This document shows, one piece after another, positions 11,111-64,000 of a stretch of DNA of 64,000 nucleotides. Positions within the stretch are counted from its first letter, which is position 1. Every line of letters starts with the position of its first letter. The notes beneath the pieces are model-generated. The model was not told where the DNA came from, did not search any database, and was given only the letters and a program-made list of their open reading frames with translations. The position numbers and the translations under genes are program-made. Origin of the DNA: Erysipelotrichaceae bacterium (GTDB lineage Bacteria; Bacillota_I; Bacilli_A; RFN20; CAG-826); NCBI GenBank assembly GCA_012837435.1, contig DURD01000011.1, positions 4,024 to 68,023 on the forward strand, given 5' to 3'.

Positions 11111-11122
11111 AAGGGATCGGCT

Positions 11123-12277: not shown

Positions 12278-12304
12278 AAGGGAATATTTTATTCCCTTTT
12301 TTGT
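12278..12304 (+). terminator. Rho-independent terminator after dnaN
   Basis: AAGGGAAT / ATTCCCTT stem with a 5-nt loop, followed by a T-run. Confidence 0.75.
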
Positions 12305-12338
12305 TCGTTTGTTTTATAATGGACGCATAGGAGTTTTT

Positions 12339-12557
12339 GTGGTTGAAAAAAGCATTAAATTGAGAGAAGGGGAAGCCTTTATTACGTTAGGTGTTTTGCT
12401 TAAAATCGCCGGTATCATTAGCACAGGCGGTCAAGCAAAATTTTTTCTCAATGAAAATGTTGTTTTAGTTAATGGAGAGAAAGAAAATCGTCGTGGTCGT
12501 AAACTATATCACGATGATAAAATTCATGTCCTTGGTTTGTCATTTTTAATCGATTGA
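12339..12557 (+). CDS. yaaA: S4-domain RNA-binding protein YaaA
   Basis: ITLGVLLKIAGIISTGGQAKFFL...NRRGRKL pattern resembles Bacillus YaaA. GTG at 12339 lies 5 nt after AGGAG; the track TTG at 12309 is probably an over-extension. Confidence 0.85.
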   Translation: MVEKSIKLREGEAFITLGVLLKIAGIISTGGQAKFFLNENVVLVNGEKENRRGRKLYHDDKIHVLGLSFLID

Positions 12558-12558
12558 C

Positions 12559-15683
<3,125 letters not shown>

Positions 15684-15700
15684 GGAAAGGAGTGATTGTT

Positions 15701-39460: not shown

Positions 39461-39727
39461 TTCTTATTGCGTTCTTATTGCGCTTTTTAAACAAAACAAC
39501 AATTTAATATTTGGAAAATAAATTTGATAATTAATTCTCTCGAAGCTTTTAGAAAAAACAGCGATTTAAATGTTTTTTGCATATTTTTTTGCATATTTTT
39601 AAATTAACTATTCAAGTTATTTAAGGATCGTTTTTTGTCAAAACAGGCTGTAAGGACACTATCTTTTTTGAAAAGCGGTAAGTAGAATATTGATATTGAT
39701 TAACTTATTTTATTCAAGAAAAGCACT

Positions 39728-40414
39728 ATGAAAAGAAGTGATATCAACAATGCCCTAAAAGAACTAGAAGAGATGTGTAAACGTTATAATTTTGCCTTGC
39801 CTCCTTTTTGCTCATTCACTCCTGAAGATTGGAAAGTTAAAGGCCATGAGTACGACGAAGTTAGAGAATGTATGCTAGGTTGGGATATTACTGACTTCGG
39901 TTCAAACGACTTTAATCACATAGGTTTATCTCTCGTTACGCTTAGAAACGGCAATAAATTGATGAGCGACAAATACCCTAAAGTTTACGCCGAAAAAATT
40001 ATGTGTTTAAAAGAAGGGCAACATTGTCCAAATCATTTCCACTGGTACAAAACTGAAGATATTATCAATCGTGGTGGTGGTAATCTTCTCATCAGAGTTT
40101 ATAATTCGCTCCAAAATGAAGAAATCGATTATGAAAACGAAGTAAAAATTCTCAGTGACGGCAGATGCTATTTTGTTCCTGCTGGAACGTGGGTCAAGTT
40201 AACTCCAGGCGAGTCCATGCATATCTATCAAGGTCTTTATCACGAATTTGTTCCAGAAGAAGGTACAGGATCTGTTCTAATTGGTGAAGTAAGCCAGTGT
40301 AACGATGACAACAACGATAATCATTTCAACCCTCCTGTCGGTCGTTTCCCAGTTATTGAGGAAGACGAAAAACCATACCGTTTGCTTTGCAACGAATATC
40401 CCAAGGCTAAATAA
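39728..40414 (+). CDS. D-lyxose/D-mannose ketol-isomerase (cupin)
   Basis: 228 aa. WDITDFG, cupin metal motif CPNHFHWYKTEDIINRGGG. Resembles the YdaE-type lyxose isomerase family. Confidence 0.75.
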   Translation: MKRSDINNALKELEEMCKRYNFALPPFCSFTPEDWKVKGHEYDEVRECMLGWDITDFGSNDFNHIGLSLVTLRNGNKLMSDKYPKVYAEKIMCLKEGQHCPNHFHWYKTEDIINRGGGNLLIRVYNSLQNEEIDYENEVKILSDGRCYFVPAGTWVKLTPGESMHIYQGLYHEFVPEEGTGSVLIGEVSQCNDDNNDNHFNPPVGRFPVIEEDEKPYRLLCNEYPKAK

Positions 40415-40416
40415 CT

Positions 40417-41409
40417 ATGAAAAAAATAACTTTTGCGGGCAATTTGATTGTTGATTCAGTTAAAAAGATGGAAATTTATCCATCTCTGGGTATGCTTTCA
40501 AAGATAGAAAGTGAAAATTTTTGCGTTGGTGGAGTTTGCAACGTTTCTATTGATTTGAAAATCCTTGATCCAAAATTGAAAATTGAAGTTTTAGGGAGGA
40601 TTGGTAAAGACGACAAAGGAAGGTTTGTTGTTGATAAATTTAAATCATTAAACATCGATACGAAAAAGATTATTATTGACGAAAAAACATTGACTTCGTA
40701 CACAGATGTTATGACTGATAAAAATGGCGCTAGAACATTCTTTCAATATGGTGGTGCGAACGACAATTTTTCCCCTAAGGATGTTGACGTTGAAAATCTT
40801 GATACAGACATCTTCCATTTAGACTATTTATTGCTTTTACCATTATTTGATCAGGAAGATGATGAGTATGGAACAAAAGCTGCAAGATTGTTTGGAAAGT
40901 TACAAGAAAAAGGCATTAAAACCTCTTTTGATGTTGTTAGCGATAGTGGTGACAGGTATCAAAAAATAGTCATACCTTCTTTGAAATACACTAATTACGT
41001 TACCATAAACGAAGTTGAAATTAGCAAAATTACCAATTTTAAAGTCAGAGACGACAAAGGAAAAATCATTATTGAAAACATCAAACGTGCTATTGAACGT
41101 TTGTTTGAATTTGGAGTTAAAGATGTTGTAACCATTCATTGTCCTGAAGTTGCCGTCATGAAAAAGAAAGATTGTGGTTTTACTGTTGTACCAAGTTTTT
41201 CGATACAAAAAGAAATGATTGTTTCTTCTGTTGGTGCGGGCGATGCATTTTTATCTGGCGTTTTATATGGATTGATTAACAACTTAAGCGACGAAGAAAC
41301 GCTAAAAATTGCTCATGCTTGTGCAGCGAACAATCTTTTTGCTATTGATTCCATTAGCGGCGCCAAGCCGATTGAATATATCAGACAATATGTCGAAGAA
41401 AAGAGCTAG
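40417..41409 (+). CDS. PfkB-family carbohydrate kinase
   Basis: 330 aa. C-terminal ribokinase-family motif VGAGDAFLSG. Confidence 0.85.
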   Translation: MKKITFAGNLIVDSVKKMEIYPSLGMLSKIESENFCVGGVCNVSIDLKILDPKLKIEVLGRIGKDDKGRFVVDKFKSLNIDTKKIIIDEKTLTSYTDVMTDKNGARTFFQYGGANDNFSPKDVDVENLDTDIFHLDYLLLLPLFDQEDDEYGTKAARLFGKLQEKGIKTSFDVVSDSGDRYQKIVIPSLKYTNYVTINEVEISKITNFKVRDDKGKIIIENIKRAIERLFEFGVKDVVTIHCPEVAVMKKKDCGFTVVPSFSIQKEMIVSSVGAGDAFLSGVLYGLINNLSDEETLKIAHACAANNLFAIDSISGAKPIEYIRQYVEEKS

Positions 41410-41411
41410 AT

Positions 41412-42260
41412 ATGTTGGTTAACATGAGTGAAATTTTAAAATACGCTGAGGAGCATAAATGTGCGGTTGGAATGTTTAATGCTACCGGATTCGATTCTAT
41501 ACAAGCCATTATTTCCGCGGCCGAAGAACTGAATGTTCCAGTAATTTTAGCGCACGCTGAGGTTCACAATATTTTTAATGATATTTCAATTGTCGCTCCT
41601 TCGATGATCGCGGCAGCTAAAAACGCTAAAGTCCCAGTCTGTGTGCACTTAGACCATGGCGTTTCGATGAATATAATCGACAGAGCAATTGATTTAGGAT
41701 TTACATCCGTGATGGTGGACGCATCCGATAAATCATTTGATGAAAACGTTGATATGACTAGAAAAGTGGTTAAAAAAGCCCATGCTAAAAATATTTCTGT
41801 TGAGGCTGAACTAGGTAGGATGCCAACAAACGAGGACGGCAGCATCGTTTTTGATAGACCGGAAAATTTTTATACTAACCCAGATGAGGCCGCTATCTTT
41901 GTTAAAAAAACAGGAGTGGACGCTTTAGCTATTGCATTTGGAACGACACATGGCTTTTACAAATCCACACCTAAATTAGATTTCAATGTTATTAAAAACT
42001 GCCGTGAAAAGCTCGATAAACTACCGCTCGTTATGCATGGTGGTAGTGGCGTTTCTGAAGAAGACTATCGTCAAGCTATAAAAGCGGGAATTAGAAAAAT
42101 AAATTATTATTCGTATATGTCTAGAGCAGGATATCTGAAAGCAAAAGAAGTCATCGAGTCTAATACAACGATGTATCTGCACGATGTCAATTATGCCGCG
42201 ATGAAGGCAATGAAAGAAAACGTTTTGACGGCCATGAAAATCATGTATAAAAGTGTATAG
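41412..42260 (+). CDS. Class II ketose-bisphosphate aldolase (FBA/tagatose-bisphosphate aldolase family)
   Basis: 282 aa. CAVGMFN, VHLDHG, MHGGSG motifs. Confidence 0.88.
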   Translation: MLVNMSEILKYAEEHKCAVGMFNATGFDSIQAIISAAEELNVPVILAHAEVHNIFNDISIVAPSMIAAAKNAKVPVCVHLDHGVSMNIIDRAIDLGFTSVMVDASDKSFDENVDMTRKVVKKAHAKNISVEAELGRMPTNEDGSIVFDRPENFYTNPDEAAIFVKKTGVDALAIAFGTTHGFYKSTPKLDFNVIKNCREKLDKLPLVMHGGSGVSEEDYRQAIKAGIRKINYYSYMSRAGYLKAKEVIESNTTMYLHDVNYAAMKAMKENVLTAMKIMYKSV

Positions 42261-42277
42261 AAGGTAGGTGGAAAAAT

Positions 42278-43171
42278 ATGATGAATAATATTAATCAGCA
42301 CATTTCGTTAACTAGATCGACTATCAATTGTGGTAAAGGTGATGGTTGCAAAATAATTACTATTGATAATGGGATATTGTCCATTGTTTTGGACGAATCA
42401 CACGGTCTTGATATTTATTCTCTCCGTTATGAAGGCAAATTGATATCGCTTTTAACATCGAATGGAATGGTAAAAGATTCGCCATTTTTAACGCAATTCC
42501 CTGGCGGAATGCTGTATACCTGTGGACTAGATGCGATTGGTTCTGTAGAAGGACATCGTCAACACGGAAACTTTCATATGACTCCCGCGGAAATCGTTCG
42601 TATTGACCACCAAGAAAACGAACTGACAATAGTTGCTAATATCAACATCACTGGTCTATTTAGTCCAATTGTTACCGTCGAAAGAACAATCAATATTAAA
42701 TATTTAGCGAACGATTTTAGTTTGGTTGATTTAGTCATTAATAAATCAGACGCTGACCAAGATATAGTGATGCTTTATCACTTCAATATGGGCTACCCAT
42801 TTATTGATGGCGATACACAACTACAAATTGGTTCCACAAAGATTAAAGGTGTTAACTCTTTTGCGGAAGCCCGAAAAGATAAGTGTCTTTTTTTAACAAA
42901 CGAATATGAGGAAGAGGAAGAAGTTTTTTATCACTACGACGCAAACGACGTCATCAAAGTAACTTCCAATTCTCAAAACTTGGTTTTTTCTCTGAAATAT
43001 GACAAAAACATTTTCCCAATTTTAACAGAATGGAAATGCCTTGTTAAAAACAACGTCGCTCTTGGTATCGAACCATCAATGAGTGAAATGGGTAAGAATT
43101 TAAGATATCGGTCTTTAAAGAAAAACGAAGTTCTTATGAATAGGTTTGAGCTGAAGATTGACAAAAAGTAA
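42278..43171 (+). CDS. DUF4432-like / aldose-1-epimerase-fold protein
   Basis: 297 aa all-beta protein with GLDIYSLRYEG and TCGLDAIG segments. This family commonly accompanies lyxose isomerase, kinase and aldolase genes. Confidence 0.55.
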   Translation: MMNNINQHISLTRSTINCGKGDGCKIITIDNGILSIVLDESHGLDIYSLRYEGKLISLLTSNGMVKDSPFLTQFPGGMLYTCGLDAIGSVEGHRQHGNFHMTPAEIVRIDHQENELTIVANINITGLFSPIVTVERTINIKYLANDFSLVDLVINKSDADQDIVMLYHFNMGYPFIDGDTQLQIGSTKIKGVNSFAEARKDKCLFLTNEYEEEEEVFYHYDANDVIKVTSNSQNLVFSLKYDKNIFPILTEWKCLVKNNVALGIEPSMSEMGKNLRYRSLKKNEVLMNRFELKIDKK

Positions 43172-43181
43172 TGCCTATTTC

Positions 43182-44243
43182 CTAGATCGTTTTAACAGAA
43201 TCTCTGCAAATTAATTTAACTGGAATTAATAGTGTAGTGATGTTCTGATTACCGTTTTGGATAACATCGAGCAACATCTTTGCCGCTTCATGACCAATCT
43301 TGAAAAAATTTTGTTCGACAGTAGTAATGGAATAAGCGTTTCTTGAACTATAAACAGCATTATCAAATCCAGTAACAGATATCTCGGGTATTTTTTGGTT
43401 ATATGATCTTAATTTTGTTAAAACATGCAGGGCAATAATGTCGTTTGCACAGACAATCGCTGTGGGTATTGAATCGTTTTTTAGTAGTTTTTCTACGCCA
43501 TCATAGATAGCCTTGGGATTATCGGATATCGATTCTGGAGTTCTTGAAAGAGTTATGAGATTGTCTCTATCAGTTTTTATACCATGTTCGTTTAATGCTT
43601 GCACAAAACCATAGTATCTTTCTTTGAGAACTGAGATACCGAAAGAAGAGATGTATGCAATGTTTCGATGGCCACACGATATTAAATACTGGGTCATTTT
43701 ATACATGCCTAATTCAGAATTTGATTTGACGACGTTGCAGTTTCTAACTGGCGAACGATCAAGAAATACGATGGGATAATTACTATTAACAAGTTTAGCG
43801 AAATAATCAGCATCTTTTGTTTGCTCAGATGGAAAAATAATGATGCCATCTGCACCGTCATTAATTACTTTTTCACAAACATCTTTTTCCGATAGTCCAT
43901 TAGAGATGTATGTGTTTGTTTTGATATTAGCACTTGAAATCGAATCATTGATACCCTCAACAATTTTAATGATTTCGGCGTTTGCGTTGATAATTACGAT
44001 AGCAACGACAATATTCTTCTTCGCGCTATATGTCGGGGCACCGTTATAAAACGTTCCCTTGCCTGCCACCTTATAAATAATCCCTCTTTTTACGAGTACG
44101 TCTAAAGCGTTTCTGATAGTTACCCTCGACACTTTATAGATATCAGTTAGCTCTTTTTCCGTAGGAATTTTACTATTTGGCGCATATTTTCCGGAATTGA
44201 ATTGTGAAATTAAATCGTTAACTATTTTTTTGTATTTTATCAT
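43182..44243 (-). CDS. AraR-type regulator (GntR winged-helix N-terminus plus LacI/PBP1 sugar-binding domain)
   Basis: N-terminal IPTEKELTDIYKVSRVTIRNALDVLV. The C-terminal 270 aa have the periplasmic-binding-protein type I pattern. Confidence 0.85.
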   Translation of the reverse strand: MIKYKKIVNDLISQFNSGKYAPNSKIPTEKELTDIYKVSRVTIRNALDVLVKRGIIYKVAGKGTFYNGAPTYSAKKNIVVAIVIINANAEIIKIVEGINDSISSANIKTNTYISNGLSEKDVCEKVINDGADGIIIFPSEQTKDADYFAKLVNSNYPIVFLDRSPVRNCNVVKSNSELGMYKMTQYLISCGHRNIAYISSFGISVLKERYYGFVQALNEHGIKTDRDNLITLSRTPESISDNPKAIYDGVEKLLKNDSIPTAIVCANDIIALHVLTKLRSYNQKIPEISVTGFDNAVYSSRNAYSITTVEQNFFKIGHEAAKMLLDVIQNGNQNITTLLIPVKLICRDSVKTI

Positions 44244-44279
44244 AACTTTTTCTTACCTAGAACGCTAGAAATCTAGCAT

Positions 44280-44387
44280 TGTATTAATTTCATAATAAAT
44301 TATACCAAAAAAATGGCAACAATAAGTCAAAATGTATTAAATTTTTTTTAAAAACTAATACAACTTTATAAAAAACTAATACAACTT
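44280..44387. promoter_or_regulatory. Candidate operator array in the divergent regulator/ABC-operon intergenic region
   Basis: TGTATTA at 44280 and 44333, and its complement TAATACA at 44356 and 44377. The 44333-44362 pair forms an inverted repeat. The 17-nt direct repeat AAAAACTAATACAACTT lies at 44350-44366 and 44371-44387 (21-bp period). Confidence 0.5.
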
Positions 44388-44448
44388 GCTTTAAATCAGC
44401 GGCAATTTGTTTTGTTTGGAAACTACTTTATTTTATAATGTTGGTAGC

Positions 44449-45366
44449 GTGATACAGAAAAAGGCTAATAAGTTTTTTAAGCGAACTTGGAACCAACGAT
44501 TTTTTTACATTTCGTCGTTCCCAGCTTTTGTTTGTTTGCTCTTGTTTTGCTATATCCCGATGGTAGGTGTTGTCATAGCCTTTAAGGACTTTTCTTTTAG
44601 AGATGGTATTTTTAACAGCGCTTGGGTTGGCTTTGAACATTTTAGAGCATTGTTTCAAGATCCAGAATTTTGGAGAGCAATCAGAAACACCATCGCTATC
44701 AATGTTCTGAAAATCATTTTTTGTTTCCCCTTCCCTATTATTTTTGCTATTTGTCTCAGCGAAATGAAAATCAAATGGGTTGCTAAAGTGAGTCAAACTC
44801 TTTCTTATCTACCTCACTTTATTCCATGGGTTATCGTTGCCGCTATTTTTACGAATATGTTAACTTCAAATGGTCTGGTTAACAATATACTCAACGGTTT
44901 TGGGATTGAGTCAATAAGTTGGCTGGAAAAATCTTGGTTTTTCTGGCCCTTGATGGTTATCACCGGCATTTGGAAAGAAATGGGCTGGAACGCCATTATA
45001 TACATGGCCGCACTTTCTAGCGTTAACCCTGAACTATACGAAGCTGCCGATACCGATGGGGCAAGCCGTTGGCAAAAAGTTAAATATGTAACAATTCCTG
45101 CTATCTTGCCGACCATCAAAATTACTTTTTTAATCACGCTTGCTGGTTTGTTTAATGCTGGCTTTGATCAAATCTATCTATTCCAAAATGGTTTAGTTAT
45201 GGATGTTGCTGAAGTTTTGGATACGTTCATTTATCGTTATGGCTTAAGCAAAATGATGTATTCATATTCTACTGCAGCAGGACTTTTCCAATCACTAGTT
45301 AACTTTACGATTCTAATCGCGGCCAATAAGATTTGTAAAAAAATGACAGGAAGCGGCATCTACTAG
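44449..45366 (+). CDS. ABC sugar transporter permease, LplB/YteP type
   Basis: About 6 TM helices and an EAA-loop region (YEAADTDGASRWQK). GTG at 44449 gives the usual N-terminal length; the track TTG at 44407 lies upstream of a TATAAT at 44434-44439. Confidence 0.85.
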   Translation: MIQKKANKFFKRTWNQRFFYISSFPAFVCLLLFCYIPMVGVVIAFKDFSFRDGIFNSAWVGFEHFRALFQDPEFWRAIRNTIAINVLKIIFCFPFPIIFAICLSEMKIKWVAKVSQTLSYLPHFIPWVIVAAIFTNMLTSNGLVNNILNGFGIESISWLEKSWFFWPLMVITGIWKEMGWNAIIYMAALSSVNPELYEAADTDGASRWQKVKYVTIPAILPTIKITFLITLAGLFNAGFDQIYLFQNGLVMDVAEVLDTFIYRYGLSKMMYSYSTAAGLFQSLVNFTILIAANKICKKMTGSGIY

Positions 45367-45374
45367 GAAATTAT

Positions 45375-46289
45375 ATGAAATTAAGAGAAGACATTAGAAA
45401 ATGGAGAAGAAAAAACACTATTGGTGAACGTATTTTTGACGTTTTCAATTTCTTCTTTCTCTTATTAATCGCTTTCGTCTCTCTCTTTCCATTCTGGCAA
45501 ATTTTAGCCCAGTCATTCAATGAACCATTAGATGCTATGAGAGGCGGAATATATTTCTTCCCCCGCGTTTGGGACACAGTGGCTTATGAAACTGTTTTCA
45601 AAAACGAAGCCATAGTAAATGCTTTATTAATTTCAATTCTTAGAACGGTGATAGGGACAATTGTTTCTATTACTGTCACTTCTTTATTAGCGTATGCTTT
45701 GTCAAAGCCATTCTTCAAATCGCGCAAAGTTTTATCTGTTTTTTGCTTAATTACGATGTTTTTCTCTGGCGGGATGATTCCGACATACATCACCATTTCA
45801 GAATTGGGGCTTATCGATAACTTCATGGTTTTCATTTTGCCTTCCGCTGTTAGTGTCATGAACATGATTATTTTAAAAACATTTTTTGAAAATATTCCTC
45901 CTGCATTTGAGGAAGCGGCACGTGTTGAAGGTGCTTCTTGGTTTAGAACGTTCTTCACAGTGGTTGTTCCTTTAGCCGCTCCTGCTATTGCCACTGTCGC
46001 ACTTTTCTTTGCGGTGGGGCAATGGTCAGCGTGGTTTGATGCTTACATCTATATTTTGGATGCCGATTATCTAACACCGTTGCAAACTCTCCTGATGAGG
46101 ATTATTAATCAAAATACCATCAGCGGGAGCGATATCACTGGTTCCAACACTGGCGGTACGATTACCGTCACTCCAGAAGCCATTAAAAACGCCACAATTA
46201 TTATTTCCACGATACCAATCTTCCTTATCACACCATTTGTACAGAAGTACTTTGTTAGAGGAATTATGATTGGTGGAGTTAAAGAGTAA
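45375..46289 (+). CDS. ABC sugar transporter permease, LplC/YtcP type
   Basis: 304 aa, 6 TM helices, EAA-loop EEAARVEGASWFRTF. Confidence 0.88.
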   Translation: MKLREDIRKWRRKNTIGERIFDVFNFFFLLLIAFVSLFPFWQILAQSFNEPLDAMRGGIYFFPRVWDTVAYETVFKNEAIVNALLISILRTVIGTIVSITVTSLLAYALSKPFFKSRKVLSVFCLITMFFSGGMIPTYITISELGLIDNFMVFILPSAVSVMNMIILKTFFENIPPAFEEAARVEGASWFRTFFTVVVPLAAPAIATVALFFAVGQWSAWFDAYIYILDADYLTPLQTLLMRIINQNTISGSDITGSNTGGTITVTPEAIKNATIIISTIPIFLITPFVQKYFVRGIMIGGVKE

Positions 46290-46300
46290 AGGAGATTTTT

Positions 46301-47917
46301 ATGAAAAAAAGAAAAATTATTTCCATCCTACCTGTATTACTATTCGTCTGTTGCTCTTTTTTAACGTCATGTAAACCAGAGACTCCAAACGACGACAACC
46401 TTTCTGAGTATGTGAGAACACAAAAAGAGAAGTGGTATATTGGTCCAAATAGAAAATTGTCATGGTACATCGGCATCAGTTGGTGGCCATACACAAATAG
46501 TTGGACGAGTTATCCTGTTCTCAATGAAGTGACTCAAATTACTGGTGTCACGCCAAAGACATCCATTGCCCAAGACGGAGATAATACTTCTTTAAAACTC
46601 CGTATGGCAAATGATAAATTACCAGATTTAATTACTATCGGCATCGATGACCCTTTAATTGAAATACTTATCGAAGAAGATTACGTCTATTCATATGATG
46701 AATTGATTGATCGATATTCAGAAGATTACGTGAATATGGAGACGTTCAAGTCGTGGTGCAGCGAAGACTTCTGGAAATGTACAGCGTGGCATACCGACAA
46801 TGAAAAACATGATGGAAAAATTTATGGCTTAAATTCCTTCTATTATCCACGAGTGGAAGACATTGGCCAATTCACGTTCAACGTGAGAGAAGATATTTAT
46901 GAAGCTATTGGTAAGCCAGATATGTCCACGGAAGAAGGCTTTTACAATGGGCTTAAGGCAGTCAAAGCAGCTTATCCTGATATGAAACCTTTAAGCTTGC
47001 CTGAATCCTGGTATTACTGGATTTTTGAAGAAGCTTTTGGCGTGAAGCCTTATTACGTAACAGAAGAGGGAGTTAAAATGAGAGTGAAAAATCCTGAATT
47101 TAAAAACGCTCTTCTCTATCTCCGCAAATTATATGCTGAAGGTCTTTTAGATCGTGACGTCTTCGTCAATTCTGATAAAACAAGCGAATTAGCGTCAGGC
47201 AAAATCTTCTGTTATCCAGTGACTTACTGGGATTTAGATAGTATCAATGCTGTTTTAGGCGATGGACATCGCTTTGTGGCCATCGAGCCACTAAGAGGCA
47301 ATGCAATTGGTGACGACGTTAGGTTCCAAGGTACTTCGAGAAGGGGTTGGACCACAACATTAATTTCTAAGAAATGCTCTGACCCAGAGGCCGCAATTAA
47401 GTTTGCTCAATACATGTTTTCTGAAGATGGCAATTTATTAGTCTGCTATGGTCATGAAAACGAACATTACAATTTAGTGGGTACTGATCAAATTGAAAGA
47501 ACGCCGGAAGTCATCGCTCAGAGAGATGCAAATTTGACCAAGTTTGAAAACGAGACAGGCATCTTCACTCAGAGACTATTTAATTACCCATACTACTTTG
47601 AGGTGCCTTCCACTAATCCCTACAAGGTAAATAATGTGGAAAAAGCATCGAGGTATGTTTACGACAATACTGTCTTTACTTATAAGATGACGCCTTCCTC
47701 TAAGACTAGACTGGGCGATATCTCATCTAAAGTTTGGGCAAAATACAATATTTTATTTCCGCAGATGGTAGTGGCAGAAACCGAACAGGCAGCTAGGGAT
47801 GCCCTAACATCTGCCATTACGGAAATGGAAAGAATTGGTTTAAGCAGTTTAGAAGATTATTGGACATCTCAATACAACAAAAACATTTTAGAATTTGGAG
47901 ACCCATTTGGGAAATAG
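46301..47917 (+). CDS. Large extracellular solute-binding lipoprotein (LplA type)
   Basis: 538 aa. Signal peptide with lipobox FLTSC. Size and context are typical of oligosaccharide-binding SBPs. Confidence 0.85.
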   Translation: MKKRKIISILPVLLFVCCSFLTSCKPETPNDDNLSEYVRTQKEKWYIGPNRKLSWYIGISWWPYTNSWTSYPVLNEVTQITGVTPKTSIAQDGDNTSLKLRMANDKLPDLITIGIDDPLIEILIEEDYVYSYDELIDRYSEDYVNMETFKSWCSEDFWKCTAWHTDNEKHDGKIYGLNSFYYPRVEDIGQFTFNVREDIYEAIGKPDMSTEEGFYNGLKAVKAAYPDMKPLSLPESWYYWIFEEAFGVKPYYVTEEGVKMRVKNPEFKNALLYLRKLYAEGLLDRDVFVNSDKTSELASGKIFCYPVTYWDLDSINAVLGDGHRFVAIEPLRGNAIGDDVRFQGTSRRGWTTTLISKKCSDPEAAIKFAQYMFSEDGNLLVCYGHENEHYNLVGTDQIERTPEVIAQRDANLTKFENETGIFTQRLFNYPYYFEVPSTNPYKVNNVEKASRYVYDNTVFTYKMTPSSKTRLGDISSKVWAKYNILFPQMVVAETEQAARDALTSAITEMERIGLSSLEDYWTSQYNKNILEFGDPFGK

Positions 47918-47921
47918 AGAT

Positions 47922-52384: not shown

Positions 52385-52387
52385 TAC

Positions 52388-56247: not shown

Positions 56248-58397
56248 TGAGACAAATTATTAATTTTAATCTCGATTGGAAATATTCTAATCAAAACCAT
56301 CAAAACTTTCAGAATCCAACATTTGATGATTCTTGCTTTGATGATGTTTATTTACCTCACACTAATAAAGAACTGCCTTTGCACTATTTTAGCGATACAG
56401 AATTTTGTTTCATTTCTAATTACCGTAAGAAGGTAGTTATAAAAAAAGAAGTTGGGAAGACGTATCATTTAGTTTTTGAAGGCATTTCTAATTACGCTGA
56501 ACTTTACGTCAATGGAAAATTTGTTAATAGTCACAAATGCGCTTATACAAATTTTGAATGCGATATTACAGCGTTTATTGTCGATGGAAAAAATGTCATC
56601 GCAGTTTTGGTCGACAGCAATGAAAGGCCTGATGTACCACCATTTGGGGGAGTGGTTGATTACCTTTGTTATGGTGGTATTTATCGTGACGTTAATCTAA
56701 TTGTTACTTCGAACGATTACATCAAAGACGTCTATGCTTTCTCTACTGATGTTGTTGATAAAGATTTACACGTTGAAATTTCTTTAACTGGCAGAGACCA
56801 GGAAGTCGAAGTGAAGATTGAAAAAGATGGTCGTACATACGGGAAGCAGAAAGCTATTTCAAACAATGGAAAAGCGAAAATTGTCTTTTCTGAGCTTCAT
56901 GTTGAATTATGGGATGTCGACAATCCTACTTTGTATGACATCATTGTCAGAACAAATGGTGATCAAAAGAGTATCAAATATGGATTCCGTTCCGCTAAAT
57001 TCACAAACGATGGCTTCTATTTAAATGGCAAAAGGTTACAACTAATGGGTTTAAACCGTCATCAATCCTTTCCATATGTTGGTTATGCCATGCCGAGAAA
57101 TGCCCAATATGAAGATGCTGACATCTTAAAATATGAACTCGGGGTTAATATTGTGAGAAGTTCACATTACCCTCCTTCAAAACATTTTATAGACCGCTGC
57201 GACGAAATAGGTTTGCTAGTATTTGAAGAGATTCCTGGTTGGAACCACATTGGCGATGAAGCGTGGAAAGATCAATCATTAAAAAATGTCCACGATATGA
57301 TTATGAGAGACCGCAACCACCCTTCTGTTATCTTATGGGGTGTACGCATTAATGAATCTGACGATGATCACGATTTTTATACGAAAACTAACGCGCTCGC
57401 CCGCTCCTTGGATTATCGTCAAACCGCCGGAGTTAGATGGAAGCCACACAGTGAATTCCTAGAAGACGTTTTTGCTATTAATGATTTTGTTCCTCTATAT
57501 GAAGAACCTCCACTAAGGGAACCAAGAATGGAAACTGGTTTAGACCACGATGTCCCTTATTTAGTCACAGAATATATGGGACATATGTTCCCAACTAAAA
57601 TAAACGATCAAGAAGCGAGATTAGTAAGGCATGCCGAAAGACATGCTCAGATACAGAATTTTGCACACAGCATTAAAAATATATCTGGTGCGATTGGTTG
57701 GTGTGCATTTGATTATAACACGCATCGCCACTTCGGCACGAATGATAAAATCTGTTATCACGGCGTGATGGATATCTTTAGAAATCCAAAATATGCCTCT
57801 TACGTCTATTTATCACAAAAAAATCCTCAAGAGGGGGTGGTTTTTGAACCAGCAACTATTTGGGCCTTTGGTGAAAAAGACATTGGTGGTGTCCTACCGC
57901 TTTTCGTCTACACGAATGTCGATAAGTTAACCATGGTTTTCGAAGGGAGAGACCCCATTGACTATTATCCTGATAAAGCGAATTATCCTTATCTTCCTCA
58001 TCCACCTATTATTATCAAAGAAATGCCTGAAGTTTGGGGTTCTACTTGGAAAGATGTTGTTTTCTATGGCTACATTAACAACAAATTAGTAGCCACAAGA
58101 GCCTACTCTTCTAATCCAATTCCATCGAGGCTTTCTTTACAAATTAAAACCAAACAACCTAGATTGTTCGATTCGATTAGAATCAAAGTTTCCGCTCTCG
58201 ATGAAAGAGACAACGTTATGAAGTTCTATAGCGAGCCGATTAAAATAAACGTCAATGGTGCAAGATTAGTTGGGCCTAGTACCGTTTCTTTAAGCGGCGG
58301 TATGTATTCCATTTGGGTAATTGCTGAACAAAAACACATTTCCGTGAGCGTTGAATCAGAAAGATTATCATTACAGACTGTTGAGATTGATTTATGA
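56247..58397 (+). CDS. Glycoside hydrolase family 2 enzyme (beta-galactosidase/beta-mannosidase type), cytoplasmic
   Basis: FNLDWKY start, sugar-binding domain YGGIYRDVNL, TIM-barrel motifs NIVRSSHYPP and ILWGVRINES. No signal peptide. Confidence 0.85.
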   Translation: MRQIINFNLDWKYSNQNHQNFQNPTFDDSCFDDVYLPHTNKELPLHYFSDTEFCFISNYRKKVVIKKEVGKTYHLVFEGISNYAELYVNGKFVNSHKCAYTNFECDITAFIVDGKNVIAVLVDSNERPDVPPFGGVVDYLCYGGIYRDVNLIVTSNDYIKDVYAFSTDVVDKDLHVEISLTGRDQEVEVKIEKDGRTYGKQKAISNNGKAKIVFSELHVELWDVDNPTLYDIIVRTNGDQKSIKYGFRSAKFTNDGFYLNGKRLQLMGLNRHQSFPYVGYAMPRNAQYEDADILKYELGVNIVRSSHYPPSKHFIDRCDEIGLLVFEEIPGWNHIGDEAWKDQSLKNVHDMIMRDRNHPSVILWGVRINESDDDHDFYTKTNALARSLDYRQTAGVRWKPHSEFLEDVFAINDFVPLYEEPPLREPRMETGLDHDVPYLVTEYMGHMFPTKINDQEARLVRHAERHAQIQNFAHSIKNISGAIGWCAFDYNTHRHFGTNDKICYHGVMDIFRNPKYASYVYLSQKNPQEGVVFEPATIWAFGEKDIGGVLPLFVYTNVDKLTMVFEGRDPIDYYPDKANYPYLPHPPIIIKEMPEVWGSTWKDVVFYGYINNKLVATRAYSSNPIPSRLSLQIKTKQPRLFDSIRIKVSALDERDNVMKFYSEPIKINVNGARLVGPSTVSLSGGMYSIWVIAEQKHISVSVESERLSLQTVEIDL

Positions 58398-60244
58398 AAA
58401 TAATTAACGTATTTAAAACACATTTCGATATTGGTTTTACTGATTTATCAGAAAACGTTATCAAAGAATATTCGTCCACTATGTTAAAGGATGTTTTGGA
58501 TTTTTGTGAAAAAACTTCATCCTATCCAAAAGGCAAAAGACATGTTTGGACAATGTCCGCTTGGCCATTAGAGCAGAGTTTAAATCGCTGTACACCAGAA
58601 TTGCTCTCAAGAGCGGAAAAATTAATCCATAATCAGCAACTCGTGTTGCATGCTTTGCCTTTCACCAGTCATACAGAATCCATGTCTGTTAACGATATGG
58701 AACATTTGTTTGATTGTGCAAAAAGAATTTGTTCTAAATACAATTTATCTTTCCCGATGTCCGCTAAAACTACTGATGTTCCTGGTCATACAATTGCTCT
58801 AGTCAAATATTTAGCTAAAAACGGTGTCAGATTTCTTCACATGGGTTGTAATCCAGCCTCTATTTATCCTGATGTACCAATGTTATTTTGGTGGGAAGAC
58901 AGAGAGGGAAACCGCGTTCTAGTGTTTTATAATAAGACATACGGCTCTACGCTCTTACCTCCAAAGGATTGGAAATATCCTGTTTGGTTATCATTGCAAC
59001 AAACAAACGATAACGTTGGTCCTCAACCATGGTCCCAAATAGAACAAAACGAAAAAGAAATCAAAAAAGCTTATCCTGGAGCAGAAGTGTTGTTCGGTTC
59101 ATTAGATGACTTTTATTGCGAAATAATAAAATGCGATTTATCGTCACTTCCAGTAATTAAGAAAGATTTAGGCGACACATGGATTCATGGTGTGGCGACC
59201 TATCCTAAAGAAGTGGGCCTCATTAGAAGAGCGAGAAATGTTGCCGCTAAAGCCACATTCTCTGAAAAAGATACATTAGATTTTTATGAAAATTCTCTTT
59301 TGTTCTCTGAGCATACTTGGGGTATGGATATTAAGACGCATTTAACTTGGAAGCGTTCATATCCAAAAGAGTTGTTCCTAAAAGAACGCTCCTCGCCACG
59401 TTATCAATTGGTTGAAAAAAGTTGGGATGAACAACGCGAAAGAGCAATGAATTGCGTTAATATTGCTCGAAAATATGGTTCTTTAGAAACAAAATTTGTT
59501 CCAATTAATAATCAAAATATCAAAGTTACTATCAAAAATGGAAAGCCTTTCATCGCTTATGCAAAAACTAATAGAGAAATAATTATTGACTATCAATATG
59601 GCATTGTTTCAACAGAAGAAATTTATGATTTTGAAAAAAAATACCTAACCCGTTTATATGAATGGGCGATTGCAGACTTTGGTAGGCAAAGTTATGGCGA
59701 AGTTGATAAGAAAAAATACGGTATCAAGCTTAAAAAATATTACTCAGATCATAATTATTCAGTTTTTGAATACGGAGTTTCAAAGGAGAGTTATACTTTA
59801 TATGGAAACTGCCATTCACTAATCATTAAAATTGGTGTGGATGCTGAAGATAGAATCCAGATTATCGTCAAACTGAATCAGAAAGAAGCAACACCGTATG
59901 TTGAATATGGAGACTTACTATTTCACACCAACTGTCAAGGCAAAGAATTTATAGTTAAAAAATTAGATTATGAGCTCAATGTTATGGAGGACATCAATAA
60001 AAACGCTAACAATATTTTGTATTGTGTCAGCGATAAGGTTGCCATTGACGACATTTCTATTAATCCTATTGATTCGCCTCTTGTTTCTTTTGGAAGCGGA
60101 GCAATTTATAAGTTTAATGGTGGAGTAGCTAAAAAAAGAAAACCAATATTTGTGTTCAATCTTTTCAATAATATGTGGGGCACAAATTTTCCACAATGGA
60201 TTGAAGGAGATTTATCCTACGAATACATTATTAAAATCAAATAA
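58394..60244 (+). CDS. GH38 N-terminal-domain-like protein (DUF5054-like), cytoplasmic
   Basis: VFKTHFDIGFTDL at the N-terminus matches the metal-binding strand I associate with DUF5054/GH38-like proteins. 616 aa, no signal peptide. Confidence 0.5.
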   Translation: MKIINVFKTHFDIGFTDLSENVIKEYSSTMLKDVLDFCEKTSSYPKGKRHVWTMSAWPLEQSLNRCTPELLSRAEKLIHNQQLVLHALPFTSHTESMSVNDMEHLFDCAKRICSKYNLSFPMSAKTTDVPGHTIALVKYLAKNGVRFLHMGCNPASIYPDVPMLFWWEDREGNRVLVFYNKTYGSTLLPPKDWKYPVWLSLQQTNDNVGPQPWSQIEQNEKEIKKAYPGAEVLFGSLDDFYCEIIKCDLSSLPVIKKDLGDTWIHGVATYPKEVGLIRRARNVAAKATFSEKDTLDFYENSLLFSEHTWGMDIKTHLTWKRSYPKELFLKERSSPRYQLVEKSWDEQRERAMNCVNIARKYGSLETKFVPINNQNIKVTIKNGKPFIAYAKTNREIIIDYQYGIVSTEEIYDFEKKYLTRLYEWAIADFGRQSYGEVDKKKYGIKLKKYYSDHNYSVFEYGVSKESYTLYGNCHSLIIKIGVDAEDRIQIIVKLNQKEATPYVEYGDLLFHTNCQGKEFIVKKLDYELNVMEDINKNANNILYCVSDKVAIDDISINPIDSPLVSFGSGAIYKFNGGVAKKRKPIFVFNLFNNMWGTNFPQWIEGDLSYEYIIKIK

Positions 60245-60256
60245 AGGAGAACAGTC

Positions 60257-61531
60257 ATGAAAGAAAATAATCATCCATATGTTTCTTTACAACATATTTC
60301 AAAAGTATATCCAAACGGAATAAAAGCTGTTCATGATTTTAGTTTAGAAGTGCAAAAACACGATTTTTTAGTGCTCGTTGGACCATCTGGGTGTGGTAAA
60401 TCAACTGTTTTAAGAATGATTGCTGGCTTAGAAGAAATTACTTCTGGTGATCTATATATTGATGGTGTTCATTCTAACGACCGCACACCAAAGGAAAGAG
60501 ACGTTGCAATGGTTTTCCAAAGTTACGCTTTGTATCCACATTTAAGTGTCTTTGACAACATATCTTTTGGTCTAAAGATTAGGCGGACTCCCAAAAACGA
60601 AATTAAAGAAAGAGTAACTGCGGCCGCTAAGATATTACAATTAGAAGATTATTTAAAGCGCAAGCCAAAAGAATTGTCTGGTGGTCAGAGACAAAGAGTA
60701 GCACTTGGCAGAGCCATTGTCAGAAATGCAAAAGTCTTTTTGATGGACGAACCCCTGTCAAATTTGGACGCTAAACTGCGTGGGCAAATGCGCAGTGAAA
60801 TTATCAAAATTCACGAACAATTAAACGCTACAACGATTTATGTTACTCACGATCAAACCGAAGCAATGACCATGGCGACTAGAATCGTCGTCATGAAAGA
60901 TGGATATATTCAACAAATCGGTACTCCAATAGAGATTTATACTAATCCATCGAATTTGTTTGTAGCGGGCTTTATTGGAGCTCCCGCTATGAATTTTATT
61001 GACTGCGTTTATAATGAAAATAAAAGTAAATTAATTTTGAATGAAAAGGTTTCTGTAAAAATTTCTAAGGAACAAAAAGAACAAATTAACAAGTTTTACG
61101 AAAATGAAATAATCAATCTTAAACTCCAACTTCAAAAGTTAAAAGATAACCCACCTGTGATAACTAGAGTCAATAAAAAGAACGCCAAATTATTAGCGAA
61201 TCATGAAAAAGAAATTACTGATTTAGAAATTAAATTATCAGCGATTGAAAACATTAAAAATGCCGAACGCAAATTCGTCTATGGTATTAGGCCGGAAGAT
61301 ATAGCAATTTGTGAACAGGACAAAAAATCACCCCCTTCTTTTGAAATTGTTGTGACAGTCGCGGAATTGCTTGGTAATGAGTATTATGTTCATACCGACT
61401 TTAATGACAAAGATATTATTGCTAAGGTACCAGCTAATGTAGTAATTAGATCTGGCGATGTGCTTGAAGTCTATTTGAGAACAGAAAAAGCCCATTTATT
61501 TGACCCTGTTACCACAAAGAGAATATTCTAG
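60257..61531 (+). CDS. Sugar ABC transporter ATP-binding protein (MsmK/UgpC/MalK type) with an inserted coiled-coil
   Basis: Walker [11 protein letters not shown]-loop, signature LSGGQRQRV, Walker [14 protein letters not shown]-loop. 424 aa, versus the roughly 370 aa I recall as usual for this family. Confidence 0.92.
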
Positions 61532-61555
61532 TCAAACTTAATGAGTTTAATAGCG

Positions 61556-62209
61556 CTATTTTAGAGATAGCAATGCTTTGATATCGTTAACTAACAGGTT
61601 AGACAATAACTCATAACCGTTATCATTTGGATGAAGTCCATCAGCGAAGTATTTGGATTCTTCTATCGGAGGAACGCCAAATTCTTTTGTATAATCAGCA
61701 ACGTATAAATCGTATTTATTCGCTGCTTTTTTAATAATTTCAGTGTAGTCAGCTAGTGTTCCAACGACGCCTTGCTTATATATTTTTCCGTCTCCATCAA
61801 TTGAGTCTTGATTGTAACGGGGAAGAGGCAAAATAACGATGATGTTTTTGTTGCCGTAAGTTTTAGAAAGGTTATCAAAAAGATAATTGACCGCTCCATT
61901 AAATGTAAAAGGAGTAGTATCATTTTCTTTGCCGAGTGGCGCCGCTCCTTGACCAAAATCGTTGGTGCCACCCATGATGACTACCAAATCTGCTTTCTTG
62001 TCCATGACTTCAAAACGCATATTAAAGTCATAATTAAGCAGAGCGTTACCAGGAAAGGCAAATTCTTGTCTAGCTATTCTAGTACCGCCCACTCCATAGT
62101 TCTTAAATTCGGCACCAAGTTTTTTAGCGGTTAATGTAACAAAATTTTTGCTAGGGGAGGACGCCATGTATCCTTCGGTTATTGAATCACCAAGAAAAAG
62201 TATTTTCAT
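61556..62209 (-). CDS. SGNH/GDSL-family esterase
   Basis: Block I FLGDSITEG, block III GGTNDFG, block V DGLHPN. ATG at 62209 follows GAGGGA; the track's upstream 30 codons are probably spurious. Confidence 0.85.
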   Translation of the reverse strand: MKILFLGDSITEGYMASSPSKNFVTLTAKKLGAEFKNYGVGGTRIARQEFAFPGNALLNYDFNMRFEVMDKKADLVVIMGGTNDFGQGAAPLGKENDTTPFTFNGAVNYLFDNLSKTYGNKNIIVILPLPRYNQDSIDGDGKIYKQGVVGTLADYTEIIKKAANKYDLYVADYTKEFGVPPIEESKYFADGLHPNDNGYELLSNLLVNDIKALLSLK

Positions 62210-62655
62210 ATATTGTTCCCTCGTCATGATTGTTATATAGATATTATCACTAACCACTGTTAAAAACATAAGGCAAAACAAAAAAACATTGAGAAGCAAA
62301 TAAAATAGTTAATTCTATATAATTTTATTGAAAAATTTTAATCCTAAAATTGAAAATAACCCTTGCGATAGATATAGATAAGACGAAAGATTTTTAGCTT
62401 TTCATATGTAATTGAAACCTTAGTGGTTGGTTTATCACTTGTCATTTTATTTTACAAAAAATTATTCACGCTAGTTAATGTTCTCACAGAAATTGCTGAG
62501 GCTTGATAGATTTTGAACAAAAACAAAGTTAACTTCACGGATTTTTAAAGAAAAAGAAATATTGCCACTCATAAAATAGAGTGGTGTAATAATTACAAAC
62601 AAATGCAATATTTTGATGAAAAAAACAGCAGTTCTGTTCAAAGGAGATTATTTTT

Positions 62656-64000
62656 ATGAAAAAACGCACTTTGTTATTACCCTTGTCGATACTATCTATT
62701 TTGGCAATCACAAGTTGTAATTCTTTTAGTTCATCAATCAATACATCTAGCGTTGATAAATCTAGCATTTCTAGCAAATCTAGTAGCTCCGACAGATCTA
62801 AACCCCCTAGTGAGTCTAGCAATAATGTGGGAAGCTCTGATAATCAAGGAAACGGGAATGAAACAAGCGGTCCTTCTTTTGAAACTATCGATACTCCAAA
62901 TGCTCCTGAAGACTCTAATGAGGGGGCTTTCTCTTTGTCGTCGAGCGATGGAGAATTTACTGAAGAAGAGGGTTTGTATAGGATTACTAAGTCTGGGACT
63001 TACGTTGCTTCGGGTAGATTAGAAGAAGGACAAATACTAATTGAGGCGGGAAAGAATGATGAAGTAGTCCTCGAACTTAAAGGGGCTACTATTTCCTGCT
63101 CCACGGATTCTCCGATTAAAGCAGTTAAAGCTGACAAAGTGGAAATTTCTGCAAAGAAGAACACGGTGAATTATGTTAAGGATTTAAGAAATGTTAAAAC
63201 CGTTGATGACTCATCTCTAGGAGAAGGGGCTATTAATGCCAAATGCGATTTAAAACTTAAAGGCACGGGCTCTTTAGTGGTAATTGGCAATTACAATAAT
63301 GGAGTACATACGACCAAAGATTTAGATATACAAAAAGAAACTTTGCATGTTACCGCGGTTGATAATGCCTTTAAAGGAAAAGATGGAATTAGTATGATTT
63401 CTGGAAATGTCACCGCGATTAGTAAAAATGGCAATGGACTGAAGACCGACAATAGCGATATATCTTCAAAAGGCAATCAAAAAGGAAACGTCGTCATTTC
63501 TGGTGGACAGCTAGTGGTGGATTCTCTTTATGATGGAATTGATGCGGCTCACGACATAACTATCAACCAAGAAAATGAAGATTCTATCGATACCGTAGTG
63601 AGCATAGTTACAGGAACAAATTCCTCCTATGGCTCAAATTATAGTTCCGTTGATACTTCCGCTAAAGGATTAAAAGCCGATAACCAAATTTTAATTGACG
63701 AAGGCGAAATTGCTATTAAAGCGAGCGATGACGGGGTACACGCAAACTATGGCGACACCTTGGAAAACGGCAATGTTGGAATAGGAAATATCACTATTAA
63801 TGGAGGAACCATCGATGTTTTTAGCGGAGATGATGGGGTGCACGCAGATGGAACCCTTGCTATCAATGGTGGGGATATCACTGTCGATAACTCAGTAGAG
63901 GGAATCGAAGCCACCCACATCTCAATTAGTGGGGGAAACACCCGTGTGTATGGAGTTGACGATGGAGTGAATGCTGCTTCTAAAAATGGAGAATATCCCA
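62656..64000 (+). CDS. Cthe_2159-type carbohydrate-binding beta-helix lipoprotein (3' end outside the window)
   Basis: Not in the ORF track because there is no stop in the window. AAGGAG lies 9 nt upstream. MKKRTLLLPLSILSILAITSCNS lipobox, Ser-rich linker, then ITKSGTYVASGRLEEGQILIEAGKNDEVVLELKGATISCSTDSPIKAVKADKVEIS and repeated beta-helix rungs. Confidence 0.75.
   Translation, partial: MKKRTLLLPLSILSILAITSCNSFSSSINTSSVDKSSISSKSSSSDRSKPPSESSNNVGSSDNQGNGNETSGPSFETIDTPNAPEDSNEGAFSLSSSDGEFTEEEGLYRITKSGTYVASGRLEEGQILIEAGKNDEVVLELKGATISCSTDSPIKAVKADKVEISAKKNTVNYVKDLRNVKTVDDSSLGEGAINAKCDLKLKGTGSLVVIGNYNNGVHTTKDLDIQKETLHVTAVDNAFKGKDGISMISGNVTAISKNGNGLKTDNSDISSKGNQKGNVVISGGQLVVDSLYDGIDAAHDITINQENEDSIDTVVSIVTGTNSSYGSNYSSVDTSAKGLKADNQILIDEGEIAIKASDDGVHANYGDTLENGNVGIGNITINGGTIDVFSGDDGVHADGTLAINGGDITVDNSVEGIEATHISISGGNTRVYGVDDGVNAASKNGEYP

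Follow-up and report, generated by a model that had tools for sequence, protein, structure and literature searches.

A region of carbohydrate-related genes was analysed in a stretch of 64,000 nucleotides from the Erysipelotrichaceae bacterium assembly GCA_012837435.1 (contig DURD01000011.1), referred to here as the window. Open reading frame (ORF) calls placed the region under study at positions 39728-64000 (24 kb), and reproduced the gene positions given in the original prediction. The carbohydrate-related content claimed there was recovered, with a Pfam match or a fold for every gene between 39728 and the edge of the window. On the left the region is sharply bounded: the genes just ahead of position 39728 encode a methionyl-tRNA synthetase (36466-38055) and a RumA-type methyltransferase (38123-39460). 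A single 24-kb island, as originally proposed, was not borne out: gene spacing, synteny and the distribution of a candidate operator motif divide the region into three transcription units. Unit 1 (39728-43171, forward strand) is a four-gene monosaccharide operon encoding a D-lyxose/D-mannose isomerase, a PfkB kinase, a class II aldolase and a DUF4432 protein. Unit 2 (43182-61531) consists of a gene for an AraR-type regulator facing a 12-gene operon that encodes an ATP-binding cassette (ABC) importer, three proteins with carbohydrate-binding modules (CBMs), a lipoprotein that we call LipoX, a protein of glycoside hydrolase (GH) family 2 and a DUF5054 protein. Unit 3 runs from 61556 to the window end and contains genes for an SGNH esterase and a Cthe_2159 lipoprotein. 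On balance, we favour the reading that the core at 43182-61531 is a Gram-positive polysaccharide utilization locus (PUL) for the capture, import and cytoplasmic trimming of a probably beta-galactoside-bearing glycan, and that the mannose-type operon beside it is separate.

The co-directional string at 44449-61531 was recovered as 12 genes with gaps of -4 to +12 bp, and the reported junction strings are exact: TAATG at 49410-49414 and 56245-56249, and ATGA at 54076-54079 and 58394-58397. The first gene starts with GTG at 44449, in an ORF that opens at 44407. The order regulator, permease 1, permease 2, solute-binding protein (SBP), CBM_A, CBM_B, CBM_C, LipoX, GH2 and DUF5054 recurs in three further uncultured genomes (loci L001, L025/L026 and L027), with identities of 37-70%, and this middle unit is the only one of the three that is syntenic in related uncultured Clostridia. 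The order is partly kept in locus L002, and the LipoX gene of a Saccharofermentanales genome (L003) likewise comes after one for a large protein with F5/8-type-C domains. On the far side of the regulator, the two loci that reach past it carry either a CRISPR-Cas9 locus or MBOAT/AlgX genes. In the closest relative in ENA, the former is a type II-A system (Cas9, Cas1, Cas2 and Csn2; L026:17772-21071) occupying the place that the isomerase operon holds in the window. Downstream of the cassette, L025 has genes for a GH109-like oxidoreductase, a weak GH28 match and a glucuronoyl-esterase-like protein. A protein of approximately 363 amino acids (aa) is encoded beside LipoX or GH2 in three relatives (L025:14345-15439, L002:12191-13279 and L003:7416-8507); its copies are 41-49% identical, have no Pfam or NCBIfam match, and have no homologue anywhere in the window.

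The regulator gene (43182-44243, reverse strand) is divergent from the transporter operon and encodes a 353-aa protein of AraR architecture, with a GntR helix-turn-helix (HTH) and a LacI-type sugar-binding domain (PF00392 plus PF13377/PF00532/PF13407). Its orthologues in L025/L026 and L027 hold the same divergent position. The 205-bp intergenic region between the regulator and permease 1 genes contains a candidate operator at 44280-44387 made up of four TGTATTA cores, two of which belong to a perfect direct repeat of 15 nt, AAACTAATACAACTT, whose copies at 44352-44366 and 44373-44387 have a 21-bp period. TGTATTA occurs 16 times in the whole window on both strands, and the four copies in this intergenic region fall within approximately 105 bp, against an expectation of 0.05 for its 205 bp (Poisson P approximately 3e-7). 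The orthologous regions between the two genes in L026 and L027 also contain repeats of the form TTGTATT/ATGTATT, and the TGTATTA core was not found upstream of 39728 or upstream of 62656. We therefore infer that the AraR-type regulator uses these repeats as a putative operator and governs the divergent pair only; the repressor would bind them in the intergenic region and thereby control the 12-gene operon. A promoter and terminator scan gave counts at or near the shuffled expectation. More distant regulator orthologues (44-50% identity) divergently face genes for LacZ-type GH2 proteins in four other genomes, and among these LacZ-type operons L033 and L034 also encode ABC permeases, with an SBP gene in L033 as well. 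In L028, L033 and L034 the LacZ-type GH2 is accompanied by Pfam-less proteins of approximately 990 aa (1,446 aa in L028) and 706 aa, which by tblastn are not homologues of LipoX or DUF5054.

The operon begins with genes for the importer, all on the forward strand. Permease 1 (44449-45366) is MalF/UgpA-like, matching PF00528 with E 8.7e-19 and NCBIfam permease models weakly. Permease 2 (45375-46289) is MalG/UgpE-like, with five hydrophobic segments, NCBIfam matches of the GlcU/UgpE/MalG type and a PF00528 score of 23.5 bits that lies just below cut-off. The next gene (46301-47917) encodes a large lipoprotein SBP of 538 aa with the lipobox LTSC. Its earlier label of LplA-type could not be verified: the sole match is to SBP_bac_1, at 24.2 bits against a 26-bit cut-off, and neither a DUF3502 match in Pfam nor any NCBIfam match was obtained. 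Only the SBP encoded in the distant locus L033 gave a DUF3502 match, and a faint one. The position of the SBP gene is kept in L001, L025 and L027, with approximately 65-70% identity. The last gene of the operon (60257-61531) encodes a 424-aa ATPase of the MsmK/UgpC/MalK type, with PF00005, OB_MalK and TOBE_2 matches and 471 bits against the NCBIfam UgpC subfamily, above cut-off; no counterpart occurs in the parts of the syntenic L001 and L025 loci that were analysed. Between its OB_MalK and TOBE_2 matches, at about residues 280-340, the ATPase has a stretch of approximately 60 aa, resembling a coiled coil, in which Lys, Glu, Leu and Asn are abundant.

Three tethered, CBM-rich proteins totalling about 2,050 aa had been predicted downstream of the SBP gene, and these are present at 496, 990 and 563 aa, or 2,049 aa in all. 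All three start with a signal sequence and carry, at the C-terminus, one hydrophobic segment with a Lys/Arg tail behind it; no LPXTG motif occurs in any of the three, and no catalytic domain was detected in them with Pfam or NCBIfam. CBM_A (47922-49412, forward strand) has a CBM9-like domain (PF06452, E 5e-16) that matches the CBM9 of Thermotoga Xyn10A (PDB 1I82) with E 3e-7, an F5/8-type-C domain (PF00754, E 7e-5) and a transmembrane (TM) segment at residues 464-489. CBM_B (49412-52384, forward strand) matches PF00754 over four stretches (E 1e-24) as well as Flg_new and Flg_new_2, and has its TM segment at 959-987. It is built of three tandem F5/8-type-C-like modules of 145 aa with 49-51% mutual identity, a fourth F5/8-type-C domain that weakly matches a Clostridium perfringens CBM32 (PDB 2J1A, E 7e-4), and two Listeria-Bacteroides repeats. 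CBM_C (52388-54079, forward strand; TM segment at 532-563) is F5/8-type-C-like, with a sub-threshold PF00754 score of 20.8 bits, and its residues 34-269 align to residues 552-816 of CBM_B with E 2e-8. Since F5/8-type-C and Listeria-Bacteroides repeat domains occur also in adhesins and other surface proteins, these three proteins without a detected catalytic domain might be adhesins that fix the cell to plant particles or host mucus; they would then take no part in nutrient capture and share only their location with an operon for galactoside transport. We regard this as very unlikely, because the genes lie inside the operon, where the junctions from the SBP gene through to LipoX measure 4, -1 and 3 bp, and their position is constant in all syntenic loci.

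LipoX (54076-56247, forward strand) is a 723-aa lipoprotein with the lipobox LSSC, which the original prediction had called an orphan. That label can be corrected on the strength of the predicted structure and Foldseek: LipoX is a protein of the GH42/GH164 fold. A search of 5.8 billion proteins yielded only 29 homologues. Its barrel belongs to no Pfam or NCBIfam family; the protein scores 19.5 bits against Glyco_hydro_42M, under the 25.8-bit cut-off, and has no match to PF02449 (the GH42 barrel). A search of the PDB with the single sequence gave nothing meaningful. An AlphaFold model built from the 29 homologues (pLDDT 89, pTM 0.91) has a three-domain fold of the GH42/GH164/GH35 type, and over its full length Foldseek matched it to GH42 enzymes, the GH164 beta-mannosidase Bs164 and a GH35 transglycosylase with E values of approximately 1e-19, TMq of 0.5-0.55 and 10-12% identity. 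Domains 2-3 align to GH42 with 97% probability in hhalign, and a PDB profile search recovered GH42-type relatives (E 2e-4) for domain 2 only; the match of this profile to Bs164 (6T5O) is confined to domain 2 with E 0.052, a likeness at the fold level only. With GH42 enzymes (5E9A, 5XB7 and 3TTS) and Bs164, LipoX thus has in common a TIM barrel, a GH42M-type alpha/beta domain and a beta-sandwich; at only 10-12% identity to GH42 beta-galactosidases and alpha-L-arabinopyranosidases, however, it is by sequence a member of neither GH42 nor GH164. It also differs in being a predicted surface lipoprotein, whereas the characterised GH42 enzymes are, to our knowledge, cytoplasmic.

A profile search of 1.84 billion representative sequences found approximately 13 full-length close clusters of LipoX, and a wider superfamily of 1,412 clusters that align from the middle of the barrel onward. 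Close homologues come from uncultured Christensenellaceae, Saccharofermentanales and other Clostridia, and more distant ones from Armatimonadota, Hydrogenedentota, Victivallales and others. A Pfam scan of ten remote superfamily members gave weak GH42M and DUF4350 matches and export tags only, with no barrel family. Outside the Clostridia, the neighbourhoods of LipoX homologues have no recurrent neighbour (among 58 neighbours, GHL10 occurs three times, and DUF4855 and sulfatase twice each) and offered no clue to a substrate; a literature search found no paper on a LipoX-like family. Across the range from Clostridia to Armatimonadota, the polar residues H67, R123, D139, E173, E174, D176, E248, E251, D290, H305, Q328 and E/D331 are invariant or nearly so, and the conserved polar residues lie at the predicted C-terminal ends of barrel strands. 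Because polar strand-end residues are invariant across phyla, the site is argued to be functional.

The LipoX barrel was aligned by hand, guided by the strands of the model, to a GH42 protein (L013:1733-3703). The paired motifs, LipoX given first, are GWHAEE and GWQTDNE, ISN and ITHN, DIIIDE and DFVSWD, RG...NFGIWV and RG...NFWVME, SGAKI and SGANT and, at the first strand of domain 2, AIMVD and AILDD. In this register, which is not confirmed, the acid/base Glu of GH42 is matched by the invariant E174, the Asn of the motif by E173 and the strand-7 nucleophile Glu by Val278. The automatic methods did not fix the register: hhalign, also when run in global mode, aligned only domains 2-3 or nothing, and a BLOSUM62 Needleman-Wunsch global alignment was implausible. 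At positions 173, 277 and 328 the wider superfamily mostly has Gly, Asp and Glu, where the LipoX clade has Glu, Trp and Gln.

These residues can be read in two ways. It is possible, and we propose it tentatively, that LipoX founds a GH-like family derived from the GH42/GH164 type with a rebuilt active site, which together with the CBM proteins forms a surface glycan-processing unit, and that DUF5054 is a second new family, with a GH38 fold and no mannosidase activity. The rebuilt site would have Glu-Glu in place of Asn-Glu and Gln in place of Glu at 328, with the strand-7 nucleophile lost; catalysis would be substrate-assisted on a 2-acetamido sugar or would use a relocated nucleophile, and the surface unit would be specific to a few uncultured Clostridia. 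Alternatively, LipoX could be a catalytically dead, glycosidase-derived binding lipoprotein, in which case the locus would have no surface enzyme and would scavenge oligosaccharides released by other members of the community. The Val at the nucleophile position, the Glu at the Asn of the "NE" motif, the Trp and Gln where the superfamily mostly has Asp and Glu, and a remaining surface apparatus consisting purely of binding modules would all suit such a protein. However, so many strand-end polar residues held from Clostridia to Armatimonadota, and the coincidence of E174 with the acid/base position, argue for a working site; the unconfirmed register weakens the argument from single positions, and a relocated nucleophile or substrate-assisted catalysis would yield the same pattern. 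We consider a dead LipoX unlikely. Given the glycosidase fold of LipoX, the surface is probably not free of enzymes.

The GH2 protein (56247-58397, forward strand) is beta-galactosidase-like and predicted to be cytoplasmic. It is 716 aa in length and has four GH2 Pfam domains above cut-off (among them PF02837 at 60.1, PF00703 at 29.3 and PF02836 at 94.2 bits, all above their gathering cut-offs). Like the DUF5054 protein it has no signal peptide, as originally stated, and both also have no hydrophobic segment. Its best solved relative is the dimeric beta-galactosidase of Paracoccus sp. 32d (PDB 5EUV/5LDR), matched over residues 32-687 with E 1.2e-176 and similar in size (732 aa). The best NCBIfam matches are GalA, LacZ-type and exo-beta-1,4-galactosidase models, and all matches are to beta-galactosidase or beta-glucuronidase models. 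The earlier hint that GH2 might be a beta-mannosidase fared poorly, as the 60 best PDB entries comprise beta-galactosidases, beta-glucuronidases and beta-galacturonidases, none of them under the name beta-mannosidase. The protein contains INES at 368-371 (NE at 369-370) and TEYMGH at 441-446, which we take to be the GH2 acid/base and nucleophile motifs, and it is probably an exo-glycosidase.

The DUF5054 protein (58394-60244, forward strand; 616 aa) is likewise predicted to be cytoplasmic and matches PF16477 with E 4e-10. Its description as GH38-like holds at the level of the fold: the model (pLDDT 95) was matched by Foldseek to 40 GH38 chains with E values of 1e-22 to 1e-16, TMq of 0.6-0.69 and approximately 10% identity. 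It does not hold at the level of sequence, where the window protein has no PF01074 match at E <= 0.01. The DUF5054 family has more than 4,000 homologues, many of which carry a precomputed PF01074 match. Across 50 homologues, residues H10, D12, D128 and H132 do not vary; they lie in THFD and TDVPGH motifs, which resemble the HxD and DxxGH motifs of the GH38 metal site and nucleophile. Single-sequence and profile searches of the PDB gave nothing meaningful for this protein, and no paper mentioning the family was found in a literature search. With the GH38 enzymes of Bifidobacterium longum (Man38A-C, 7UFR/7UFS/7UFT) and Streptococcus pyogenes (2WYH), the protein shares its fold along most of the chain (TMq 0.65-0.69), as well as a predicted cytoplasmic location and a gene beside an ABC importer, but it is shorter than the matched GH38 chains of 830-1,180 residues. 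In other genomes, DUF5054 genes have as neighbours GH35/42, GH20, DUF4838, GH112 lacto-N-biose phosphorylase and GH127 genes, with one in an unrelated setting.

The originally suggested sequence of surface capture, import and cytoplasmic breakdown fits the topology of the encoded proteins, with exported CBM proteins, a lipoprotein SBP and two leaderless proteins of glycosidase type. The CBM proteins would hold the glycan at the membrane, LipoX would cut it or hand over fragments, and the ABC system would import the oligosaccharides. In the cytoplasm, GH2 would then remove beta-galactosyl ends, and DUF5054 would remove a second sugar. The leaderless SGNH esterase encoded nearby may strip acetyl groups. 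For the substrate, the most likely class is a beta-galactoside-bearing glycan, ahead of mannan or a high-mannose N-glycan; it could be plant galactan, arabinogalactan or pectic side chains, or else a host glycan.

The mannoside or N-glycan substrate originally proposed would make the whole 24 kb one island, in which a GH2 beta-mannosidase and a GH38-like alpha-mannosidase release mannose that passes to the isomerase, kinase and aldolase. This scheme would account for the D-lyxose/D-mannose isomerase family gene directly upstream, for the alpha-mannosidase fold of DUF5054, whose best matches include the Man38 enzymes of B. longum, for the match of LipoX to a GH164 beta-mannosidase as well as to GH42, and for the SGNH esterase. 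It is weakened, however, by the beta-galactosidases nearest to GH2, by the pairing of regulator orthologues with LacZ-type genes, and by the isomerase operon, which does not adjoin the cassette in either of the two orthologous loci reaching past the regulator (L026 and L027). Because it is absent there and has no TGTATTA motif upstream, this operon is taken to be separate from the cassette. In addition, the marker families for N-glycan and mannan breakdown (the GH18 and GH85 endo-glycosidases, GH20, GH125, GH130, GH26 and GH5) were not found in the locus with Pfam, and DUF5054 genes elsewhere do not adjoin mannan genes. Taken together, a mannoside island appears unlikely. Several points nevertheless weigh against the beta-galactoside PUL as we have described it. 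The substrate class draws mainly on GH2 and the partners of the regulator orthologues, and the ligands of the CBM proteins are not readable from sequence, their PDB matches being weak (E 3e-7 and 7e-4). Every characterised GH38 enzyme that we know of is an alpha-mannosidase or a close variant, so that the glycan may have a mannosyl component. LipoX, with Val278 at the nucleophile position, may not be a hydrolase; co-transcription and induction of 44449-61531 are inferred from gene spacing only; and the lyxose/mannose isomerase operon does physically adjoin the cassette in this genome.

The upstream operon opens with the gene for a cupin-type D-lyxose/D-mannose isomerase (39728-40414, forward strand; 228 aa), which matches PF07385 (Lyx_isomer) over profile positions 1-222 of 222 with 315.3 bits against a 20.8-bit cut-off (E 2e-94). 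It scores 260.8 bits against the NCBIfam model LyManIsomGneg, under the 350-bit equivalog cut-off, and belongs to the same cupin family as the D-lyxose isomerase of Escherichia coli O157:H7 (PDB 3KMH/3MPB, E 8e-62). For the E. coli context of that gene, blastn in distant mode gave no match and a literature search for Z5688 gave nothing useful. The second gene (40417-41409, forward strand) encodes a PfkB-family sugar kinase of 330 aa (PF00294, E 1.7e-30), for which all NCBIfam equivalogs are far under cut-off, the best being ribokinase at 70.9 against 299.65 bits. The third (41412-42260, forward strand) encodes a class II ketose-(bis)phosphate aldolase of 282 aa (PF01116, E 2.9e-86), which is above the TIGR00167 ketose-bisphosphate aldolase subfamily cut-off (235.2 against 215.6 bits) and reaches no NCBIfam equivalog cut-off for fructose-bisphosphate or tagatose-bisphosphate aldolase. 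The fourth (42278-43171, forward strand) encodes an aldose-1-epimerase-like DUF4432 protein of 297 aa (PF14486, E 6e-39) that matches PDB 3TY1, a "hypothetical aldose 1-epimerase", with E 9.6e-10; it is a probable mutarotase, and a literature search on DUF4432 gave nothing relevant.

The four predicted roles, mutarotase, isomerase, kinase and aldolase, would make up a self-contained route from a free aldose to dihydroxyacetone phosphate and an aldehyde. The rhamnose and fucose pathways follow this logic; the window operon differs from them in that the specificities of its kinase and aldolase are not assigned by NCBIfam. The operon would thus be a separate route for a free lyxo- or manno-configured sugar, adjoining the cassette in this genome without belonging to it. 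The sulfoquinovose (sulfo-EMP) pathways use the same four enzyme roles, with the Pfam sets PF16161/PF02952/PF00365/PF01116 or PF01263/PF07221/PF00294/PF01791 (PMC10665668). A sulfo-EMP2 reading of the window operon was rejected, since its set, PF14486/PF07385/PF00294/PF01116, is neither of these and no sulfoquinovosidase, sulfolactaldehyde enzyme or exporter is present. Upstream of the isomerase gene, at 39573-39600, is a tandem direct repeat in which TTTTTGCATATTTTT occurs twice with an overlap of a few bases; it is unrelated to the TGTATTA motif and may be a separate regulatory site.

To the right of the cassette, the SGNH/GDSL esterase gene (61556-62209, reverse strand) is convergent to the 12-gene operon and encodes a protein of 217 aa, counted from an ATG with a GAGGGA ribosome-binding site, which matches PF13472 with E 3e-25 and has no signal peptide. 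PDB and NCBIfam searches gave no informative relative for it. A gene 36% identical to it stands after the DUF5054 gene in L001. After a gap of 446 bp follows the gene for a Cthe_2159-type lipoprotein (62656-64000, forward strand; PF14262, E 4e-63; lipobox ITSC), which is cut by the window edge and is 639 aa at full length, as seen in L022. That locus extends past the right edge: L022:12400-21275 holds the Cthe_2159 gene, genes for a LytTR response regulator and a histidine kinase on the opposite strand, two ORFs of unknown function and a gene for a 1,014-aa GH3 protein. Given this GH3 gene, carbohydrate genes run on past the window. The window is chromosomal and near the origin, with yidC-jag-mnmE on the minus strand and dnaA-dnaN-recF-gyrB-gyrA on the plus strand at 9.6-18.4 kb. 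The origin neighbourhood spans 5325-18421, with dnaA at 9580-10962 and a change in the sign of GC skew near 8-10 kb, and the glycan locus is approximately 30 kb away from the origin. Elsewhere in the window, a 382-aa ORF without a Pfam match (25958-27106) is flanked by an iron-type alcohol dehydrogenase gene and a TldD/PmbA pair.

Uncultured Clostridia of the Christensenellales type are common in the gut, and their glycan foraging is poorly described. The cassette shows one route to a Sus-like capture apparatus in a Firmicute without an outer membrane, in which separate membrane-tethered binding proteins and a lipoprotein of glycosidase fold stand beside an ABC importer. Its main interest lies in two uncharacterised enzyme-like proteins, of which LipoX is very rare. 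An activity for LipoX, with its 29 close homologues and approximately 1,400 linked unannotated clusters, or for DUF5054 would annotate many metagenomic genes.

A Gram-positive PUL (gpPUL) has been defined by a minimum of one enzyme that degrades polysaccharides, a system for carbohydrate transport and a transcriptional regulator (PMC5320581). The core has GH2, two permeases with an SBP and an MsmK/UgpC-type ATPase, and a GntR-HTH/LacI regulator, and so falls within this definition; the enzyme is supplied by GH2, probably exo-acting, with LipoX only a candidate for an endo-acting one. In contrast to the Sus-like PULs of Bacteroidota, no gene at 39728-64000 belongs to a Pfam family of the SusC (TonB-dependent transporter)/SusD pair, and the locus is not a Sus-like PUL. 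With the gpPULs of Roseburia and Eubacterium rectale (PMC5320581) it shares a glycosidase, an ABC importer, a regulator, polymer binding by CBMs and intracellular breakdown of oligosaccharides. It differs from them in that its CBMs are three free-standing non-catalytic proteins and are not appended to enzymes, in that TM helices at the C-terminus and lipid anchors serve as its tethers and LPXTG was not seen, and in having a candidate surface enzyme and one cytoplasmic enzyme outside the described families. The architecture, originally called unusual, is so only modestly, in its three separate non-catalytic CBM proteins and its two unclassified GH-like proteins, and is otherwise that of an ordinary gpPUL. 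The general logic of the locus is that of known Gram-positive PULs, and nothing in it overturns current ideas.

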